Program-made: the position numbers and the translations under genes
Shown: piece after piece, positions 12,373-25,466 of the stretch
Layout of the letters: each line of letters begins with the position of its first letter
Position numbering within the stretch: position 1 is the stretch's first letter
Notes under the pieces: model-generated
What the model saw: only the letters and a program-made list of their open reading frames with translations
What the model was told of the DNA's origin: nothing
The model's database searches: none
Virus record (IMG/VR): IMGVR_UViG_3300025030_000042
Length of the DNA: 64,000 bases
Strand: one strand, 5' to 3'
Source: a virus
Taxonomy: Duplodnaviria; Caudoviricetes

Positions 12373-13623
12373 TTATCCCAACAGTTTCCAAGTTCTTTTG
12401 ATGGCGCCTCTCGTCGAAAAACTCCATTGAGGGCTCCAATCCGGCTTTATCATATATGGACGATTAACATATATTGTATCCTTATTTATATCAATCCCCC
12501 AACATCTTATTGATGTCTGTTTGGAGTTGCTATCAATAAGATCGACAACATAATAATCTTTTCCTTTACCGGTTTTCTTTTGTATTACATTTCGTGGGAT
12601 TGCCCACACACAATCGCAAAGTTCCGGATCATACTCGCTTATCGGCGGTATACACATTTCTTCCAGTCTTCTCAACAACTTCTCTGACATTACCATATCG
12701 AACGGAAAAATGCCAGACAAAGTTGTGGCGTGCTCGATTTTTTGTTCCTCGGAGAAGTCCGGTTGACCACGATATTCCTCAATGTTTTCAAGGAGTTGTT
12801 TTTCGGTTTTAGGACGATTAAAAACAATAGAGCACCACATATGTTTTGTATGCTCAAAACGATTGTCCATAATGGACTTTAATGATTCGGACTTCACAAG
12901 AACATCAAGAGATTTTTTGTTTAGTTTTTGATAGGAGATATTTTCATTAAACAGAAGTTCTTCAATGGTGTTGAATGGGCGATTGTTGATGATTTGTTCC
13001 ATTGCTTTGTCACCCAAGCCTTTAAGTGATGTGAAAGGCTGGACGAGCGTTTTATCGTCATTCGGATCAATCTCCCAGTTTGCGGTGGATTTATTAATAT
13101 CGCAAGGAGAGATTGTAAAGTTTAAACTTTTCACAAGATTGATGGCTTTTTCTTTTTTATCTTCTGATTCCGCGTCTAAATATGCCGAACTCCATTCAGC
13201 AGGGTAATAGTTAAGAAGATAAGCACAAGTATATGAAATGATTGAATAAGAGATCGAATGCGAACGATTAAACGAATATTTTGAAAAGAAAATCATCTTT
13301 TGCCAAAGTTCTTCAGCATCAGAAAGTTTAATCTTTTTTTCCAAACACCCATCAATAAACTTCTGATATAATCTATTTTTAACCTCTTCTTCTTTTCCAG
13401 TACCCTTCTTTGTTAATACCTTACGAAGCAATTGTCCTTCGTCAAGCGAAATATCCTTGCCGAGTTTATGAGCAATTTCAGACAACTGTTCTTGAAAAAT
13501 ACAATTATGAACTAATATATTGTTGGCAAAAAAGTTATTATTTTTTTCTACCTCTATGTCATATACTTTTTTAGGAATTTCGTTCCTTGTAATAGATTTT
13601 ATCTTTATTCTTTTGATTTCCAT
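12373..13623 (-). CDS. dnaE: DNA polymerase III alpha C-terminal half, preceded by split-intein C-fragment
   Basis: 40-aa IntC ending LVHN, then CIFQEQ, KYSFNRSHS, YPAEW and HhH/OB-fold region. Own GGGAG RBS. Confidence 0.92.
   Translation of the reverse strand: MEIKRIKIKSITRNEIPKKVYDIEVEKNNNFFANNILVHNCIFQEQLSEIAHKLGKDISLDEGQLLRKVLTKKGTGKEEEVKNRLYQKFIDGCLEKKIKLSDAEELWQKMIFFSKYSFNRSHSISYSIISYTCAYLLNYYPAEWSSAYLDAESEDKKEKAINLVKSLNFTISPCDINKSTANWEIDPNDDKTLVQPFTSLKGLGDKAMEQIINNRPFNTIEELLFNENISYQKLNKKSLDVLVKSESLKSIMDNRFEHTKHMWCSIVFNRPKTEKQLLENIEEYRGQPDFSEEQKIEHATTLSGIFPFDMVMSEKLLRRLEEMCIPPISEYDPELCDCVWAIPRNVIQKKTGKGKDYYVVDLIDSNSKQTSIRCWGIDINKDTIYVNRPYMIKPDWSPQWSFSTRGAIKRTWKLLG
13504..13623 (-). 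mobile_element. Split intein C-fragment (IntC, 40 aa)
   Basis: Block F VYDIEV..NNNFFAN, block G VHN, Cys at +1. Confidence 0.92.
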
Positions 13624-14447
13624 TTTTCTATTTCTCCCTTTCTTAAATCTTCTAAAAATTCTGTTGATAAACTTCCATAAATTCTACAAATTTCATAATT
13701 ATTTTTAATCGCTTTTTGTGTATAAAATTCATCAACATATTTTTGTTTTTTCATTCTTTGTGTTAAAACAAATTTATCTTCATTTCCGTGCCAATAATCA
13801 CCATCATATTCTATAATAAGATGTTTGTTAATAATATAAAAATCATATATATGATTAACATTATCAATTTTATACCCCGATATTATATCATCCTCACAAA
13901 CATTTTTGAGTTTATCTTCAAAATCTATTTCTTCTTGAGATCTGTTAACATTTTTTTTCATATCGTGATAAATTAACATATGATGAGATAATCCAGATCT
14001 GTATTTAAAAATCTGATTACAAATTTTACAAATTATTTTTTTTTCTTTTCCGCAAGTTGCTTTGTGTGCTCGTAAAGAAGTGTTTGTAGAAAACTCTTTA
14101 TTACAATTCTCACAATTAAAAACTCCAAATTGAATAATTTTATCTCTAAATTTTGAAGCAGTTATTTTATCTTTCCACTCTTTAGATTGTTTTCTACCTT
14201 TATATCTTCTTTTTAATAGTTCATTTGAACATTTTTTACTACAAGCAATATAACTCCTTACTCTACTCTCGGGAACTCGTTCTTTTTTTCCACACCTACG
14301 ACAATAAACATCTACTCTGTTTTTTTCATATTTATTTTTTCTAAAAAGAGATAAACATTCCTTTGAACACGTTTTTGTTATTCTTTTTGATTGAACATTT
14401 TTAACAAATTCTTTCTCGCAAACCTCACAAACAAATTGTTTATTCAT
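13605..14447 (-). CDS. Free-standing Vsr/DUF559-like endonuclease with multiple zinc-binding modules (putative homing endonuclease)
   Basis: CxxC repeats, a NUMOD3-like basic segment, C2H2/C2HC-like fingers, and RSQEE...YDFY...IIEYDGDYWHG. GAGGAGG RBS. Confidence 0.85.
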   Translation of the reverse strand: MNKQFVCEVCEKEFVKNVQSKRITKTCSKECLSLFRKNKYEKNRVDVYCRRCGKKERVPESRVRSYIACSKKCSNELLKRRYKGRKQSKEWKDKITASKFRDKIIQFGVFNCENCNKEFSTNTSLRAHKATCGKEKKIICKICNQIFKYRSGLSHHMLIYHDMKKNVNRSQEEIDFEDKLKNVCEDDIISGYKIDNVNHIYDFYIINKHLIIEYDGDYWHGNEDKFVLTQRMKKQKYVDEFYTQKAIKNNYEICRIYGSLSTEFLEDLRKGEIEKWKSKE

Positions 14448-14488
14448 ATATCAAGATCCTCCTCTTGATATATAAGTAGTTCAATTGT

Positions 14489-14779
14489 TTAATTAATTAT
14501 TAAAATTTCATCTTCAATTGATAAATCTTTAACCATTTTTAACCCATTTGAAGTATAAATTAAATGCTCTCCAGTTAATTCTATACATCCTTCTTCGGTT
14601 GAAATAGTAAAGGTTTCTTTATATCCCATAAATTTTCCATTTATTATTTTATCTTCTTCGATATATTTTTTCGTTATATTATAAGAAGGTAATAAAACAT
14701 CAAAAAGATTATTTTCTACTATATTTTCAATATTTATTTCTCCATCTTCTGTTAAAATTTTCACATCCCCCGCTAGACA
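14489..14779 (-). mobile_element. Split intein N-fragment (IntN, 96 aa)
   Basis: Block A CLAGDVKILT and block B IELTGEHLIYT (TxxH), followed by a stop codon. Confidence 0.92.
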
Positions 14780-17107
14780 ATGACCAAAAGTGGATCCCAA
14801 TATTTTTTCCAAAATCGGATGAATATATTTTATTGTATCTGGATTTTCTTTTGAATTTAGATAAAGTTTATCAACGTTTGCCTGCAAAGTTCCAGGTCGC
14901 ATGATACTTGTCACATCACTCAACTCATTTATTGAATATGGTTTAACTATTTTACAAAAGTTTTGAGCATTTTTTTCTGTAAACTGAAATATAGCAATCC
15001 AGTTTCCATTGTGAAAAGCATTTTCCCAAACATTTCTATCATTTAGATTTAATTTATCTGGATGAAGATTTTCATTATAATACTTCCAAACATCTTGTAT
15101 TTGAGGATCTGTATTATTATGATTTCGCTTTAAAATTATACGAATACATTGCTCAATAATCCGCAATGTTTTTAAACCAAGTAAATCAAATTTTAAAATT
15201 CCTCGGCGTTCCAAATGGCGAACTGCCTGCCCTTCCGTCCACGGTGAGACGCACTTTCCTCCATTATTGATCAATGGCATCCATTTATTTAAATCTTCTC
15301 CAATACAAGTTCCTCCTGCGTGAACACCATGAGAACGAACCTGACCTTGAAGTGCTTCTACTCGTTTTTTAACTTCTGGATATTGTTCAAAAAACCCACG
15401 AAGCGTTTTACTGTATCTACAATATTCCTCAAAAGTTGGAACATAAACGCCAGCAGATTGATCGTGTTCTTTTTTCGCTAATGGTATTGCTTCGCTATCC
15501 ATTTTACTCGTTACATAGTTCACTTCGCCAAATGGAATATCATAATATTTACTAATATCTTTGATAAGCGATTTTAACTGAAGAGTATTAAAGTTTGAAA
15601 TAAGAACAACGGAGTTTTCTCCCCATTCTTTAATCAAGTGTTCTTTTAGTTTTACTGGCTCGGAAAAATCTACGTCCAGATCAGGGAAGTCCACAGCATC
15701 TCTACGTAAAAAGCGTGAAAACTGAAGATTGTATTTAATCGGATCGATTTGTGTTATATCTAATACATATGCCAATAAAGTTCCCGCCCCAGAACCTCTT
15801 GCTGGTCCAATCAAACAAATCTTTCTCGCCTCCTCCACAATCGCCTTCATTGTTACAAAGTATTTTGAAAACCCTCGATCCTTTATGACATATAACTCTT
15901 CCTTCAATCTCTCAACATATTCTTTTTTCTTGTTTAACCCCTTTTTCTTCAATCCCTCGATCGCCAACTTCGCCAAATAACCGTTTTCATCTTCTCCACT
16001 TAGAACGACAAAGTTCGGCAACCTCACCTTGTTATCCGGTTCAAACTCTTCAACGAGAACGAAAGCAATATCGTGTGTTCTCTCCAATGTCTCCCGAATG
16101 AAATCATCATCATAAGAATATCCACACATCTTGGAATATTTCTTATAATCTGACCATAATTGGTCGCCGTTTTTCGGATACAAAGTATATCCGATTTCCT
16201 CAAGATTTTCGGGTATTTCGTCGCTCAGCCAAGAGGGTTTTTCGCGATTTGATTTTCCAAGCCATCCGAGGCGCTTATAAAGTTCTCGATCCCGCCAGGC
16301 ATCTGGTCTTGGATAATGCGCATCAACACAAGAAATAACTTTAAAATCATATTCTTTTGATAACTCAATAACGAGCGTATTTAATCTGTGTTGTTCTGGA
16401 ATATTATTCCATTGTAACTCGCCGAAAAAATGTTCATTACCAAATATGGAAAGCATTTTTTCTATCGGAGTTCTCATAAGTTCATAGAGTTCCGAATGGG
16501 TTTTTTCTTTATTTTGCCAGATGACTTGTGCCAAAATTCCGCCAATACACCCACTTGTAGTTATTAAACCTTCACTGTAGGTTTTAAGATTTTCATAATC
16601 AATTCTGGGATATCTATAGAAGTTATCTCCTCTGTATGAAAGAGAAATAAGCTGGAATAGATTGTTTAGTCCCGTTTGATTTTTTACTAAAGTGGTTAAA
16701 TGTCCTCTTCTGTTTATTTTATTTTTATGGTATCGGCGTAAATCTTCTTCATCTTCAAGAGAGATGGCGGAATGTTCTTCGTCTTTGTCGTTTTTCTTTT
16801 CTTTCTTATCCGCTTTATATCTCTCGTATTCAACCTTCCATTCTTCAACGGAATCAATGAAATAAAGTTCACTTCCAAAAACTTGACGAAGATACTTTCC
16901 CTCTTTTTTCAGTTTTTCATATGCTTCAAGTTGATATGTAAAACCATTCATATTACCGTGATCGGTCAGACAAAAAGCATCCAGACCGTTTTCCCAACAA
17001 TAACGCATATGTTCTTCTGGATGACCCAAGGCATCGAACGGAGAGCCAATATCGCTGTGATGATGAAGATTTACGAACTTTATTGATGGTTTTTGTCGTT
17101 CGGACAT
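14489..17107 (-). CDS. dnaE: DNA polymerase III alpha N-terminal half (PHP + palm) ending in split-intein N-fragment
   Basis: HHHSD PHP, TDHGN, GPARGSGAG, PDLDVDF, HAGG, KFDLLGLKTL, RPG motifs. Confidence 0.95.
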   Translation of the reverse strand: MSERQKPSIKFVNLHHHSDIGSPFDALGHPEEHMRYCWENGLDAFCLTDHGNMNGFTYQLEAYEKLKKEGKYLRQVFGSELYFIDSVEEWKVEYERYKADKKEKKNDKDEEHSAISLEDEEDLRRYHKNKINRRGHLTTLVKNQTGLNNLFQLISLSYRGDNFYRYPRIDYENLKTYSEGLITTSGCIGGILAQVIWQNKEKTHSELYELMRTPIEKMLSIFGNEHFFGELQWNNIPEQHRLNTLVIELSKEYDFKVISCVDAHYPRPDAWRDRELYKRLGWLGKSNREKPSWLSDEIPENLEEIGYTLYPKNGDQLWSDYKKYSKMCGYSYDDDFIRETLERTHDIAFVLVEEFEPDNKVRLPNFVVLSGEDENGYLAKLAIEGLKKKGLNKKKEYVERLKEELYVIKDRGFSKYFVTMKAIVEEARKICLIGPARGSGAGTLLAYVLDITQIDPIKYNLQFSRFLRRDAVDFPDLDVDFSEPVKLKEHLIKEWGENSVVLISNFNTLQLKSLIKDISKYYDIPFGEVNYVTSKMDSEAIPLAKKEHDQSAGVYVPTFEEYCRYSKTLRGFFEQYPEVKKRVEALQGQVRSHGVHAGGTCIGEDLNKWMPLINNGGKCVSPWTEGQAVRHLERRGILKFDLLGLKTLRIIEQCIRIILKRNHNNTDPQIQDVWKYYNENLHPDKLNLNDRNVWENAFHNGNWIAIFQFTEKNAQNFCKIVKPYSINELSDVTSIMRPGTLQANVDKLYLNSKENPDTIKYIHPILEKILGSTFGHCLAGDVKILTEDGEINIENIVENNLFDVLLPSYNITKKYIEEDKIINGKFMGYKETFTISTEEGCIELTGEHLIYTSNGLKMVKDLSIEDEILIIN

Positions 17108-17298
17108 ATAACATACCTTTCTAATGCTGACACATAATATTTTGTGAAACCATTAGGATCTTTAAACCAATAAACACTATAAAGATCACTTAAATACTTC
17201 CGTTCTATTTTAATAATAACTCCAAGGCTTACTTCTCGTAGATAGTTGATATGTTTTACAAGATCGCCAACCACAAGTTTATTCTGATTTATCTTCAT
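17080..17298 (-). CDS. Small KVGDL-family protein
   Basis: LVVGDLVKH...LGVIIKI...YSVYW. Confidence 0.7.
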   Translation of the reverse strand: MKINQNKLVVGDLVKHINYLREVSLGVIIKIERKYLSDLYSVYWFKDPNGFTKYYVSALERYVICPNDKNHQ

Positions 17299-18292
17299 TC
17301 TTATTGATCCTGTAAATCGGATTCAATTTTCTTCTAATTGGATTATATTTCCATTTGGTTTTATCACGATGATGCCGTTTACTCTCTATCGGCAGCAAAA
17401 TAGGCTCACTTCTAATCATTTCTCTTTTCTCTTTTGATTCCATATACTTACAATAGGTTTCCCAACTGTCAATGGTATAATACCACGGAATCTCTATTCG
17501 CACAATGTTTTCTTCGTCTTCAAACTGGAAAACATCATCCAGAGTATAAACATCTTTAACCACATATTTATCTGCCGATCTATGAATGGTAAAAACTTCG
17601 TGGACAACAGAACGATTTTTAACTTCTATTATATTGTTTGAATATGTTTTCCGCGAAGCATTTAAAAGCTTTTTCTTTATTCTGACAACATCTTTGTATA
17701 GAATAATAAAACCCGTATAAAGTCCTTGTTCAACGGTTTGTCCCTTGTATGATAACAAAACCGTCTTATTATTTTTCATAACATTTCTACTGGAAAAATC
17801 AATCGTCTCTGAAGAATATACACCATAAGGAAATGAAACATAAAATCGTGTTGGAGATATCCACTTTGTTATATTACGACTAATGTTGTGGGCAACCGTT
17901 GCTCCATAAATAACACTCCAAGCAAAACTATTCATTGTTTTGTGTTGAAGAGTCTTTATTGGAATATAAAAGATCGGTATTTTTCTCTCATACTTTGCCG
18001 CCATTCTTATAGAAATGAACTTTCCCTTTTCTATTGACTCCGGATCTTTTAGCCATTCACCGATTCTGTATTTTAATAAAGGTTGAATGTCATCATTACA
18101 AATGATCCAAATCGTTTTACAACCAGCGCGAGCAAGTTCCATCAGACATTTTTCAATGGCAACCAAATCTCTGCCAATCGGCATCATACATTCGGGCCAC
18201 TCAAACCCAAAATCAAGCGCACCTCCAGCAACCGGAATGATCCCCGCCAAGTGATCGTGCGATGATCTTGCGCGTATTCTTTCTTCAGACAT
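17279..18292 (-). CDS. Divergent sugar-phosphate nucleotidyltransferase-like protein
   Basis: GIIPVAGG...PECMMPIG...AGCKTIWII resembles the NTP_transferase N-terminus. The canonical GxGTR motif is absent. Confidence 0.55.
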   Translation of the reverse strand: MSEERIRARSSHDHLAGIIPVAGGALDFGFEWPECMMPIGRDLVAIEKCLMELARAGCKTIWIICNDDIQPLLKYRIGEWLKDPESIEKGKFISIRMAAKYERKIPIFYIPIKTLQHKTMNSFAWSVIYGATVAHNISRNITKWISPTRFYVSFPYGVYSSETIDFSSRNVMKNNKTVLLSYKGQTVEQGLYTGFIILYKDVVRIKKKLLNASRKTYSNNIIEVKNRSVVHEVFTIHRSADKYVVKDVYTLDDVFQFEDEENIVRIEIPWYYTIDSWETYCKYMESKEKREMIRSEPILLPIESKRHHRDKTKWKYNPIRRKLNPIYRINKNEDKSE

Positions 18293-22070: not shown

Positions 22071-25000
22071 TTATGAGCACTTACTATATCCACAATGTAT
22101 ACAAGAAACACACCCCTCTTTGTAGTTGAGAGCATCTTCTTGCTTACATTCTGGGCAAACTTTATCTCCCTCTGGTTTTTCTCCGTCTAAAATATATGTT
22201 TTTAACACTCTCGCAATACAGCGAGAAAACGAAAACATATCACTATCTTTGTCCTTTTGAAGTTGTTCTACAATATAGTTTATCTTAGCTCCGTGTCGTA
22301 AACCCAAAGAAATCATTCGAGTTAATGCGGAATGATTTGGATTATCAAAAATCTCAATAACATCTTTGATAACAATCTCGCTACCGTTCTCTCCAATTCT
22401 TAAATCATAAACATTTTTTTTAGTTTTATATTTTCGTTTTTCCAAAGATGCTTTTTTATAAGATTTGGGAACTTCAATATATTTCGATAACCCCCCAATA
22501 ACTTCATATGGTTTATCTTCCATAAGACCAACAGCAATCGTCCAGTTTTCTCCTTTAAACTTCATTTGATGAATATCGCATAAAAGTTTATCTGGTCTTT
22601 TGGGGGCGTTATATTGAGGAAATATTTCATTTACATTTTGTTTTTTTTCATTATTTGCAATAAGGACTCCAGAGCGTGAACCGTCTACATAAACAGTAAT
22701 ACCCTTTAAACCCTTTTTCCACGCTCTTTTATACAAACTTCCAACAACTTCAGAAGTTGTTCCTTTTGGAAGATTTATTGTTGAAGAAATACTATGATCA
22801 ATATTTTGCTGAATAACCGATTGTATATCAACTCTTTTTTCCCAATCTATTTGATCGCTTTCAATAAAATAATCTGGCATTTTATCTGTACCAAAGAGTG
22901 TTAAATATTCTTTAACATTATGATGATAAACTTTATATTCTTTCCACTTATCTCCAACATCATCTATAAAATCAGCCCTTTCGCTTTTTTCATTATGGTT
23001 TAGTTTCCTTCTACGAATATAATGATTTCTAAATACTGGCTCAATACCAGAACTTGTTTGGCTGATAACAGATACGGTGCCAGTAGGAGCATTAGTCAGT
23101 AAAGAAATATTTCTTCTACCTCTTTTTTGAATATCTTTTTGTATTTTTTCAGGAAGTCTTTTAATGAAAAAATTATTTTTTTCTTTTTCCCAATCGAACA
23201 ATGGAAAACTGCCCCTTTGTTCCGAAAGATTTACACTTTCTCCATAAGCATTATTTCTTAGTATTTCATATATTTTTCCAATAATATCTAATGATTCATT
23301 AGAATCATATTTCATTTCTAAACAGGCAATACAATCTGCTAATCCGTGAGTTCCGAGTCCTATTCGTCTTCCAGTCTTACAAGCGTTTAAAAGTTTATTC
23401 CATAACACTTTTTCGCTTTCTTCATCTACAATATTCAATATTTTTTCAAGTTTTTCTATTTCCAAATCAACTAAATCATCTGAGAGTCGAGTAGCGATTT
23501 TAACAACTTCAGAAAATTTATTAAAATCAAAAAAAGCATCTTTGGAGAACTTATTAGATACAAAATGTTTTAGATTTATTGAAATCAATCGACAGGAATC
23601 ATATTCTGACAGTGGAAGTTCAGAACAGTTTGAAACAAGTAGTCCACCAGTCCAATATGTATGTTCTTCATCGTCAACCGATATATCATAAACTTCTTGT
23701 TTCCCTAAAGATATTATTTCTTTTATTTCATAAGTTATTTTCTGCTTATTAATGTTAGATCTATATCCCAAACATATATCATCTAGTTTTTTTGATTTAT
23801 ATGGTTGTATAAACCCAATCATTTCTCTAAATTTTCTTCTATCAACAGTTATATTTAAATCATAACTTTGACGACACTCATAAACTCCATTTGAAAACTC
23901 TACGCATTTTGATTTATTTGTAGTATAATAAGAAGAAATGCCAATAGAAGAAAGCATTTGTTGAACTTCTCTAATAATCCTGAAACTTGATGCTTTTAAT
24001 GTAATGCGCGTAGAAACAACAGATCCATTTGCCGAATACAAACCTCTTAAAAATCCAACAACTTTATTATAATCACCTTTTAAAAATCTTTCAGGAATAT
24101 ATCTATCGTAAGTTTTTGGAAGTTCTGTAGCTATTATAGTAGTTTTAACTTCCCATCCATAATCAAAAGCCTCCCTTCTATCTTTTAAAATTAAAGAAGA
24201 TATTTCAGAAGTAAAATAATCTTGATCATCTTTTCCAATACATAAATATACCGATAAATCATTAGATGCTTTATGAACAGTTCCGTCTCCAACAATCATT
24301 CCATCCATTATGTCTTGTATATTAATATTACTAGAAGATATCAGTCCGCCTTTACAAATATCAATAGCATAAGCATTTTTAACTTCTATTTTCTCTCCTT
24401 CGCACATTACACGATGATTTTCTGTTCCAATAAAACTTCCAGCAGTCGTTGAATAATCAAAAACTTCTTTAACTCCTGTTTTCCATTTTTTCGTTATTTT
24501 GGTCCACCGCTTCCCCGACCAAACAAAATCACCCTCGCTAACTTCTCCGATCGTTGAAATACCATTTGAAGTTAAAACAGTTGCCCAAGAAGGCTGGCAG
24601 GGATTGACAGAGACGGATCTAAACGATTCATAACATTCCGCCGGAAGATTATTTCTTACATTGTCCCACATGATCAACCCGGGTTCTGCTGTATATGTAG
24701 CCGATTTTACAATCAAATCCCATAAAGTTTTTGCTTTTATTATTTTTGAAACTTTAGGATTATTTGAATCAATCGGAAACTTAAGTTCAAAATTCCCATC
24801 CTTCTCCACTGCTTTCATAAACTCGTCAGATATTTTAACAGAGACATTTGCTCCCGTAGTTTTTTTTAAATCTTGTTTCATTACAACAAATTTTTCAACA
24901 TCTGGATGTCTTACATCCATTGAAATCATTAAAGCTCCACGACGATTATTTTGTCCAACCATTCTACAAACATATGAATAAAAATCAGAAAAACTCCAAG

Positions 25001-25466
25001 CTCCAGTAGTAGTTCCAGCAGAGTTATTCACTCCACAACCATCTGGACGAAGAGTAGAAATATCTATTCCAACTCCACAACGACGCTTAAAAAGATTAGC
25101 AAGTTCCTTCCCTTTGTCAATAATAGAAGACATATTATCTTCTGGAGATGCGATTACAACACAGTTGCTTAATGATACATTTGCGTAATCATTTCCTATT
25201 CCATACATTGGACTACCTTGAGGAATAATATTTTTAAATCCCTTTAATAATTCATAAATTTCTTCTTCGCTCATAGAATTTGGATATTTTTTTTCTATTC
25301 TCGCAAATTCTTTTGCCAATCTTCTATGCATATCATCGGGAGTCTTTTCTAAAAGATTTCCTTCTTTATCTTTTAAAGCATATTTTTTAATCCACACATC
25401 TGTCGCAAGTTCATCGCCATTAAAATATTCAAGTGTAGATTTATACACCTCTTCTTTGCTATACAT
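22071..25466 (-). CDS. nrdJ: Class II (B12-dependent) ribonucleotide reductase containing an intein
   Basis: SNC, GVGID, RRGALM, NP|CSELPL reconstituted across the intein, APTGT, KGITVYVDGSR, C-terminal TSCPD-like domain and zinc ribbon. No nrdB in the window. Confidence 0.88.
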   Translation of the reverse strand: MYSKEEVYKSTLEYFNGDELATDVWIKKYALKDKEGNLLEKTPDDMHRRLAKEFARIEKKYPNSMSEEEIYELLKGFKNIIPQGSPMYGIGNDYANVSLSNCVVIASPEDNMSSIIDKGKELANLFKRRCGVGIDISTLRPDGCGVNNSAGTTTGAWSFSDFYSYVCRMVGQNNRRGALMISMDVRHPDVEKFVVMKQDLKKTTGANVSVKISDEFMKAVEKDGNFELKFPIDSNNPKVSKIIKAKTLWDLIVKSATYTAEPGLIMWDNVRNNLPAECYESFRSVSVNPCQPSWATVLTSNGISTIGEVSEGDFVWSGKRWTKITKKWKTGVKEVFDYSTTAGSFIGTENHRVMCEGEKIEVKNAYAIDICKGGLISSSNINIQDIMDGMIVGDGTVHKASNDLSVYLCIGKDDQDYFTSEISSLILKDRREAFDYGWEVKTTIIATELPKTYDRYIPERFLKGDYNKVVGFLRGLYSANGSVVSTRITLKASSFRIIREVQQMLSSIGISSYYTTNKSKCVEFSNGVYECRQSYDLNITVDRRKFREMIGFIQPYKSKKLDDICLGYRSNINKQKITYEIKEIISLGKQEVYDISVDDEEHTYWTGGLLVSNCSELPLSEYDSCRLISINLKHFVSNKFSKDAFFDFNKFSEVVKIATRLSDDLVDLEIEKLEKILNIVDEESEKVLWNKLLNACKTGRRIGLGTHGLADCIACLEMKYDSNESLDIIGKIYEILRNNAYGESVNLSEQRGSFPLFDWEKEKNNFFIKRLPEKIQKDIQKRGRRNISLLTNAPTGTVSVISQTSSGIEPVFRNHYIRRRKLNHNEKSERADFIDDVGDKWKEYKVYHHNVKEYLTLFGTDKMPDYFIESDQIDWEKRVDIQSVIQQNIDHSISSTINLPKGTTSEVVGSLYKRAWKKGLKGITVYVDGSRSGVLIANNEKKQNVNEIFPQYNAPKRPDKLLCDIHQMKFKGENWTIAVGLMEDKPYEVIGGLSKYIEVPKSYKKASLEKRKYKTKKNVYDLRIGENGSEIVIKDVIEIFDNPNHSALTRMISLGLRHGAKINYIVEQLQKDKDSDMFSFSRCIARVLKTYILDGEKPEGDKVCPECKQEDALNYKEGCVSCIHCGYSKCS
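23628..24599 (-). mobile_element. Cis intein (324 aa) with LAGLIDADG homing endonuclease, at the RNR thiyl-radical Cys
   Basis: Starts CQPSWATVLT, block B GTENH, LAGLIDADG-like DGMIVGDG and RGLYSANG, block F VYDISV, ends VSN|C. Confidence 0.92.

Follow-up and report, generated by a model that had tools for sequence, protein, structure and literature searches.

Introduction

Fractured genes were defined in 2009 by Dassa, London, Stoddard, Schueler-Furman and Pietrokovski (PMC2677866), who described three dnaE loci (DnaE-1, DnaE-2, and DnaE-3) with different insertion points. The endonucleases of the fractured genes form a Vsr-like family, for which NUMOD-3 is the sole DNA-binding motif mentioned; hairpins at the ribosome-binding site (RBS) of the endonuclease gene were found in 15 of the 16 loci, and in 15 loci the endonuclease gene overlaps that of the C-terminal intein fragment (IntC) by 6–69 bp (PMC2677866). 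In 2011, Taylor et al. characterized I-Bth0305I and named the EDxHD family (PMC3239194). Here, a dnaE locus of the same kind is described at positions 12373–17107 of the IMG/VR virus record IMGVR_UViG_3300025030_000042, a stretch of 64,000 nucleotides that is referred to below, at its full length, as the window. It is very probable that this uncultured groundwater phage has a fractured dnaE gene, interrupted by a cassette that combines a class 1 split intein with a gene for an EDxHD/zinc-finger endonuclease, and that the two polymerase halves are joined by protein trans-splicing.

Organization of the fractured dnaE locus

All features of the locus lie on the minus strand. As read from the open reading frames (ORFs) and their translations, the DnaE-N gene (14489–17107) encodes 872 residues, namely DnaE residues 1–776 followed by the N-terminal intein fragment (IntN), and the IntC-dnaE-C gene (12373–13623) encodes 416; between them lies a free-standing homing endonuclease gene of 280 codons (13605–14447), recognized by Pfam, phrog_559, AlphaFold, and Foldseek. 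According to Pfam and to the phage DnaE profile phrog_405, the N-extein (14780–17107) comprises the PHP and palm/NTPase domains and the first part of the fingers, and terminates in GSTFGH. The C-extein (12373–13503; 376 residues and the stop codon), also delimited with Pfam, supplies the rest of the finger domain and HhH; its first codon, 13501–13503, is that of Cys+1 in CIFQEQ. The ORFs, each with its own start, stop, and RBS, begin at 17107, 14447, and 13623, in three different frames, so that neither read-through nor a single frameshift could fuse them.

The polymerase itself is continuous across the break. The DnaE-N protein matches PHP, DNA_pol3_alpha (the NTPase of the polymerase III alpha subunit), and positions 14–113 of DNA_pol3_finger, while the IntC-DnaE-C protein matches Intein_splicing (118–155), positions 116–162 of DNA_pol3_finger, and HHH_6; likewise, position 716 of phrog_405 is where the match of the N protein ends and that of the C protein begins. 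This continuity of the finger and phrog_405 profiles indicates that the polymerase is interrupted without loss or duplication. The insertion falls into the finger motif T-x-G-x|x-x-(F/Y)-Q-E-Q. Counted from T to the second Q, this motif spans 10 residues in the spliced sequence of the window, and it does so too in all paired alleles, i.e., those with both halves on one contig (window, L105, L106, L012, and L024), and in intein-less proteins. By alignment to solved structures, the insertion site corresponds to residue 684 of the E. coli alpha subunit, 741 of the Taq enzyme, and 705 of M. tuberculosis DnaE1, and the second residue of the C-extein aligns with residues 685, 742, and 706, respectively.

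The initial annotation, made from the sequence of this stretch, had read a DnaE-N protein ending in STFGH|CLAGD...TGEH...IIN and a stop codon, with an IntN of 96 residues, then a complete endonuclease ORF, and finally a separate C gene with its own RBS, in which a 40-residue IntC leads into CIFQEQ. Translation confirmed these junctions and coordinates, including the extent of the endonuclease ORF, and the C gene indeed bears the Shine–Dalgarno (SD) sequence AAGGGAG and the junction ILVHN|C. The proposal that joining TFGH to CIFQEQ restores a conserved motif agrees with the 10-residue spacing of the intein-less proteins.

The split intein

IntN (residues 777–872; 14492–14779, with the stop codon at 14489–14491) was delimited by translation and by its matches to mini-inteins. 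It begins with Cys1 in CLAGD, bears the block B residues T69-G-E-H72, and ends with LIIN. IntC (13504–13623), recognized from Pfam Intein_splicing and from solved inteins, starts with the basic sequence MEIKR and includes block F (VYDIEV) and block G (ILVHN), whose His-Asn pair is followed by Cys at +1. Both halves thus bear the marks of class 1 inteins, and Cys1 and block B are kept in an allele (L001) whose IntN is 46% identical. As had been pointed out initially, the halves are complementary in charge: the net charge of IntN is −11 (19 D/E against 8 K/R), and that of the first 20 residues of IntC is +5. In searches, IntN matched the Spl DnaX mini-intein (expectation value, E, 3.5e-4) and a DnaB mini-intein, and IntC matched positions 118–155 of the 155 in Intein_splicing (E 3.5e-8) as well as solved inteins (E 6.5e-5 and weaker), gp41-1 and NrdJ-1 among them.

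In predictions of the IntN–IntC complex, with 10 extein residues left on each half, the interface score ipSAE reached 0.82 (median of three runs), against 0.00 for the best of three controls; the mark used in calibration was attained by 51 of 78 solved complexes and by 2 of 108 mismatched pairs. Contact agreement between the runs was at least 93%, and the predicted local distance difference test (pLDDT) of the partners was at least 74. The intein is therefore classed as naturally split, its halves lying on separate translation units and being predicted to associate.

It might be supposed that the intein halves no longer splice and act merely as a non-covalent clamp holding the polymerase fragments together, as has been proposed for fragmented phage genes whose interaction domains derive from inteins or from other sources; non-covalent assembly is documented for a phage ribonucleotide reductase split by a homing endonuclease gene (PMC3045599). 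However, the intein is of full length (96 + 40 residues) and has lost none of its splicing residues (Cys1, T-x-x-H, His-Asn, and Cys+1), whose conservation across alleles of just 32–51% identity would be unexpected were binding alone selected. Loss of splicing is thus considered improbable, and trans-splicing remains the preferred reading.

The endonuclease

In the product of the middle gene, CxxC zinc ribbons and two C2H2 zinc fingers are combined with a C-terminal nuclease domain of the EDxHD (Vsr-like) type. The fingers are matched by Pfam zf-C2H2 (E 1.3e-6, two fingers), and phrog_559 matches as well. A homology search returned 33 matches, i.e., the protein itself and 32 homologues, several of which have DUF559/Vsr domains (PF04480/PF03852) or are named very-short-patch-repair endonuclease in their source. 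When 28 homologues were aligned, nine residues proved invariant (Y201, D202, E213, D215, G216, D217, W219, H220, and R255). An AlphaFold model (pLDDT 88) was found by Foldseek to resemble the catalytic domain of I-Bth0305I (3R3P; probability 0.99–1.00, template-modeling score normalized to the target 0.58–0.65), and its middle part to resemble arrays of C2H2 fingers. The fold match, the invariant residues, and the homologues together identify the product, on sequence and model grounds, as an EDxHD (Vsr-like) homing endonuclease with a predicted DNA-binding part of zinc ribbons and C2H2 fingers. In each of the three further contexts examined, the gene between the DnaE fragments encodes a homologue that is 36–47% identical (P0122, P0124, and P0128).

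In one further allele (L001:931-1854), the core of the nuclease domain is replaced by ~100 apparently foreign residues unlike the remaining protein, and P0122 (from L105) represents its intact version. The L001 sequence reflects either decay of the gene or a chimera made in assembly.

Expression features

The start of the endonuclease gene is buried in a predicted 13-bp RNA hairpin (14444–14475), with the SD sequence GGAGGA in the loop and the AUG codon in the 3′ arm. At −16.2 kcal/mol (z −4.8), the fold of 14430–14500 on the minus strand was not equaled by any of 200 shuffled sequences. The L106 allele has the same hairpin architecture with a different stem sequence, and hairpins also occur 5′ of the endonuclease genes in L105 and in a fractured nrdJ. 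The last 19 nt of the endonuclease gene (13605–13623) are shared with the IntC gene, and the 3′ end of the endonuclease gene also contains the SD sequence AAGGGAG (13634–13640), 10 nt before the ATG of IntC-dnaE-C. Both expression marks of fractured genes, the hairpin over the endonuclease RBS and the endonuclease/IntC overlap, are hence present.

A TACTTA sequence, read at 14473–14479 at the 5′ edge of the window hairpin, closely precedes the endonuclease gene in each of the four dnaE alleles that were folded (window, L105, L106, and L024); it could serve as a start site by which the hairpin is opened. CTAYTTA was considered as a late-promoter word and rejected: with 19 occurrences in the window against an expected 21, it shows no enrichment and by itself gives no evidence of a promoter.

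Independent assemblies and an intein-less relative

The three-gene layout with identical proteins is present on at least 23 contigs, the longest being ~211 kb, and Logan contigs from about six groundwater and soil studies contain the locus, one of them spanning 12453–17500 with no differences. These data bear on two alternatives. One is that the break is an artefact of assembly or sequencing within a contiguous intein with a nested endonuclease domain; indeed, contiguous inteins of ~380–420 residues exist at the CIFQE site in other DnaE genes, namely in long metagenomic ORFs (L089–L093) that are 22–33% identical to the window DnaE. Yet the three ORFs with their own signals occupy three frames, the independent assemblies are identical in layout, and alleles of quite different DNA sequence share it, so that this alternative is refuted for practical purposes. 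The other is that dnaE is decaying or non-functional, a pseudogene hit by a selfish element, with replication being performed by another polymerase. This is very unlikely: each half is a long open frame, and together they match the PHP, palm, finger, and HhH profiles completely; the proteins do not differ between the contigs from several studies; and relatives whose exteins are ~50–57% identical have retained the layout.

Look-ups of two flanking small proteins, made in search of an intein-less strain with identical neighbors, returned fractured contigs only. An intein-less relative was nevertheless found in two sequencing runs. In run X17, a 710-nt contig matches 13150–13495 with 43 differences over 346 nt (~88% identity) and then diverges, reading uninterrupted across the junction as LDSTYGH-LLYQEQLSEIAH. 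The 30 nt that adjoin the matched part, translated in frame in the direction of the gene, encode L-D-S-T-Y-G-H-L-L-Y, followed by QEQLSEIAH (STYGH-LLYQEQ), with Leu at the position of Cys+1 in the window phage. Over these 30 nt, 14 bases are identical to the window while most amino acids are the same, in comparison with ~88% identity in the adjoining 346 nt. This divergence at the junction, in a small sample of sequence, is compatible with a diverged endonuclease target. A 361-nt contig from run X15 (depth ~42) covers 13309–13495 and resumes at 14916; its 144 unaligned nt equal, by arithmetic, the 8 + 136 nt of extein predicted for a precise intein-less allele. The same run contains a 1637-nt contig with the cassette (depth ~14, 13 differences); in this groundwater sample, the intein-less relative is thus about three times deeper than the cassette strain (~42 against ~14), contig depth being a rough measure.

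Continuous-ORF contigs, which the initial annotation had named as a sign that would speak against it, therefore do exist. Their source is a diverged relative, so that they support mobility of the cassette and do not undermine the finding, and presence or absence among relatives is the pattern expected, as far as sequences can tell, of a homing element.

Among isolated phages, Megablast with the locus gave no match, and tblastn found exteins less than 33% identical and IntC in none; hence, no cultured relative carries the cassette. A scan of IMG/VR for close relatives with the last 120 residues of the N-extein gave one distant match and thus no copy of the phage itself.

Related inteins at and near the DnaE site

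A word-index search with IntN alone retrieved no sequence, IntN itself included, and was replaced by an exhaustive profile search. A profile of two IntN sequences, compared with 1.84 billion representatives, gave 591 matches at E ≤ 0.001, the best of which are mostly C-terminal ends of DnaE fragments. Among the matches listed, an intein lies in the same finger motif of DnaE in at least 22 protein clusters and in three adjacent registers: after TYG (TYG|C-IIFQEQ) in 12 clusters, after TYGx (TYGx|C-IFQEQ) in two, besides the window, and after TYGxx (TYGxx|C-FQEQ) in eight. Together with the contiguous inteins mentioned above, this indicates on sequence evidence that the insertion site is not peculiar to the window phage. 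A scan of genome contigs with intein-internal patterns found no named organism with a contiguous intein at this site, nor did it yield a link to the name of an InBase allele.

The window IntN is 32–51% identical to members of all three registers, and the identity is not sorted by register, which suggests that the insertion point slid by single residues during homing. A broader picture can be drawn, in which one intein/endonuclease lineage occupies the three registers after such sliding, the polymerase was hit repeatedly, so that in some phages DnaE is made from three or four pieces by means of two or three split inteins, and the endonuclease is a natural zinc-finger nuclease (C2H2 fingers joined to EDxHD). 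Taken as a whole, this picture has about an even chance of being correct.

Several related loci deserve mention in their own right. In L012:3659-8939, three split inteins divide dnaE into at least four pieces, and in L024:963-8647 and L106:1-6132, it is in at least three pieces each. The break sites in these loci are the palm/finger region, the TxG..QEQ motif, and FNK|SH, and most gaps have their own endonuclease gene. At GFNK|SH, the inteins of L012 and L024 are split, with Ser1 and Ser+1. An allele of the window split intein (P0077; L001:1811-3478), in which IntC and the start of the C-extein are together 73% identical, also contains a contiguous mini-intein at GFNK|SH, three residues from the cyanobacterial split site. 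A phage dnaE that is ~49% identical (L061:2817-7425) is split by a related intein at FTER|CGAQ, ~64 residues upstream of the window site (query residue ~712).

IntC sequences of the same clade occur in other proteins as well. They are fused to C-terminal fragments of dUTPase (HN|CGYRGE) in L051, L055, L062–L064, L069, L073, L075, L077, and L078, and to a fragment that is clamp-loader-like, as read from the extein sequence, in L044 and L066; to our knowledge, neither protein is listed as a split-intein host. In the window itself, a ribonucleotide reductase of 1131 residues (22071–25466, minus strand) contains LAGLIDADG_3 (residues 469–520) inside its barrel domain. A contiguous intein in which an endonuclease is nested probably accounts for this domain, and the genome would then have both a contiguous and a split intein.

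Proposed mechanism and its significance

From the observed anatomy, conserved residues, alleles, and presence/absence polymorphism, we infer a course of splicing, endonuclease cleavage, and regulation that might proceed as follows. The three genes, between which no terminator-like site was found, appear to be co-transcribed, and the two polymerase halves would be translated separately. The acidic IntN and the basic IntC would then associate and fold into a HINT domain, and trans-splicing would ligate ...STFGH to CIFQEQ..., yielding a polymerase of 1152 residues. The hairpin that buries the RBS and AUG would meanwhile hold the endonuclease gene translationally quiet. Once made, the endonuclease could cut intein-less dnaE alleles of co-infecting relatives, and repair would copy the cassette into the cut allele.

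Several observations weigh against this reading of the locus. The Pfam intein match of IntC, at 33.8 bits, lies under the gathering score of 35.8; IntN is without any Pfam match; and the DUF559 match of the endonuclease is non-significant (E 0.052). His occupies the −1 position of the splice junction. The docking score may reflect the model's memory of solved split inteins: since such complexes exist, docking indicates a likeness to them without proving binding. The intein-less allele was seen just as contig ends and belongs to a diverged relative, not to the same strain. Finally, no RNA run contains the locus. The initial proposal of a naturally split intein with an endonuclease gene in a fractured dnaE is supported by all the evidence available.

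With this locus, the few natural fractured dnaE genes on record are joined by a cassette that is complete, was assembled repeatedly, and appears intact. Its insertion point is fixed exactly by an intein-less relative in the same aquifer, which makes a natural pair of donor and recipient alleles available for a homing experiment. Protein engineers gain a further uncharacterized split-intein pair, whose junction is unusual in having His at −1 and Cys-Ile-Phe at +1 to +3. The endonucleases, as predicted, are a family in which C2H2 fingers are naturally fused to a small dimeric nuclease domain. The understanding of such elements is left unchanged by the window locus.

Comparison with known systems

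In most cyanobacteria, the halves of the DnaE intein are encoded at distant loci, without an endonuclease gene. The window intein resembles the Ssp and Npu DnaE inteins in being a naturally split class 1 intein in the alpha subunit of polymerase III, with an acidic IntN, a basic IntC, Cys1, and Cys+1. It differs in position: the Ssp/Npu insertion lies 76 residues further downstream, before FNKSH, a motif that is intact in the window as FNRSH. Counted on the translation, residue 117 of the C protein, which immediately precedes FNRSH, corresponds to the cyanobacterial site; its distance from C+1 is 76 residues, just as had been estimated initially, and membership in the Ssp/Npu DnaE allele is thus excluded. 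In the searches, no Npu or Ssp DnaE chain was matched by the window IntN at E up to 10, and the matches of IntC to these chains had E values of only 0.1–0.3.

With gp41-1 and NrdJ-1, the window intein shares the IntC clade (VYDI.V..NHNFFAN..LVHN) and the origin from fractured genes, but the host protein and the extein context are different, the window having His at −1 and Cys-Ile-Phe at +1 to +3. The IntC matches to gp41-1 and NrdJ-1 are weak (E 0.01–0.05), and IntN gave no match to either at E up to 10. The window pair is therefore distant in sequence from gp41-1, NrdJ-1, and Npu, and its orthogonality, put forward in the initial annotation, is a hope. No paper characterizing a split intein at this DnaE site was found in the literature, the DnaE-1, DnaE-2, and DnaE-3 loci of Dassa et al. 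being compared by description only.

The endonuclease shares with I-Bth0305I the nuclease fold, the acidic and His residues, and the order of an N-terminal DNA-binding part and a C-terminal nuclease, at ~15% identity. Unlike I-Bth0305I, whose gene lies in a group I intron and which binds DNA through NUMOD/HTH motifs, the window enzyme is free-standing between intein halves and has C2H2 fingers.

The closest likeness is to the fractured genes of Dassa et al. As in those loci, the intein halves lie on two ORFs of the same strand with a free-standing gene for a Vsr-like endonuclease between them, and the complementary charge, the RBS hairpin, the endonuclease/IntC overlap, the phage-like host, and the replication enzyme as a target are all alike. 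The lengths of the halves (96 and 40 residues) fall within the described ranges of 88–105 residues for IntN and 33–54 for IntC. The differences concern the DNA-binding part of the endonuclease, which has zinc ribbons and two C2H2 fingers in place of the NUMOD-3 motifs of the Dassa family, and the habitat, which is groundwater for the window and surface water for the Dassa loci. The initial annotation was right, and cited correctly, that Vsr-like endonucleases in fractured genes had been described before. The arrangement, dnaE included, with its Vsr-like endonucleases, hairpins, and overlaps, was fully described in 2009, and the window locus is a clean new example of it.

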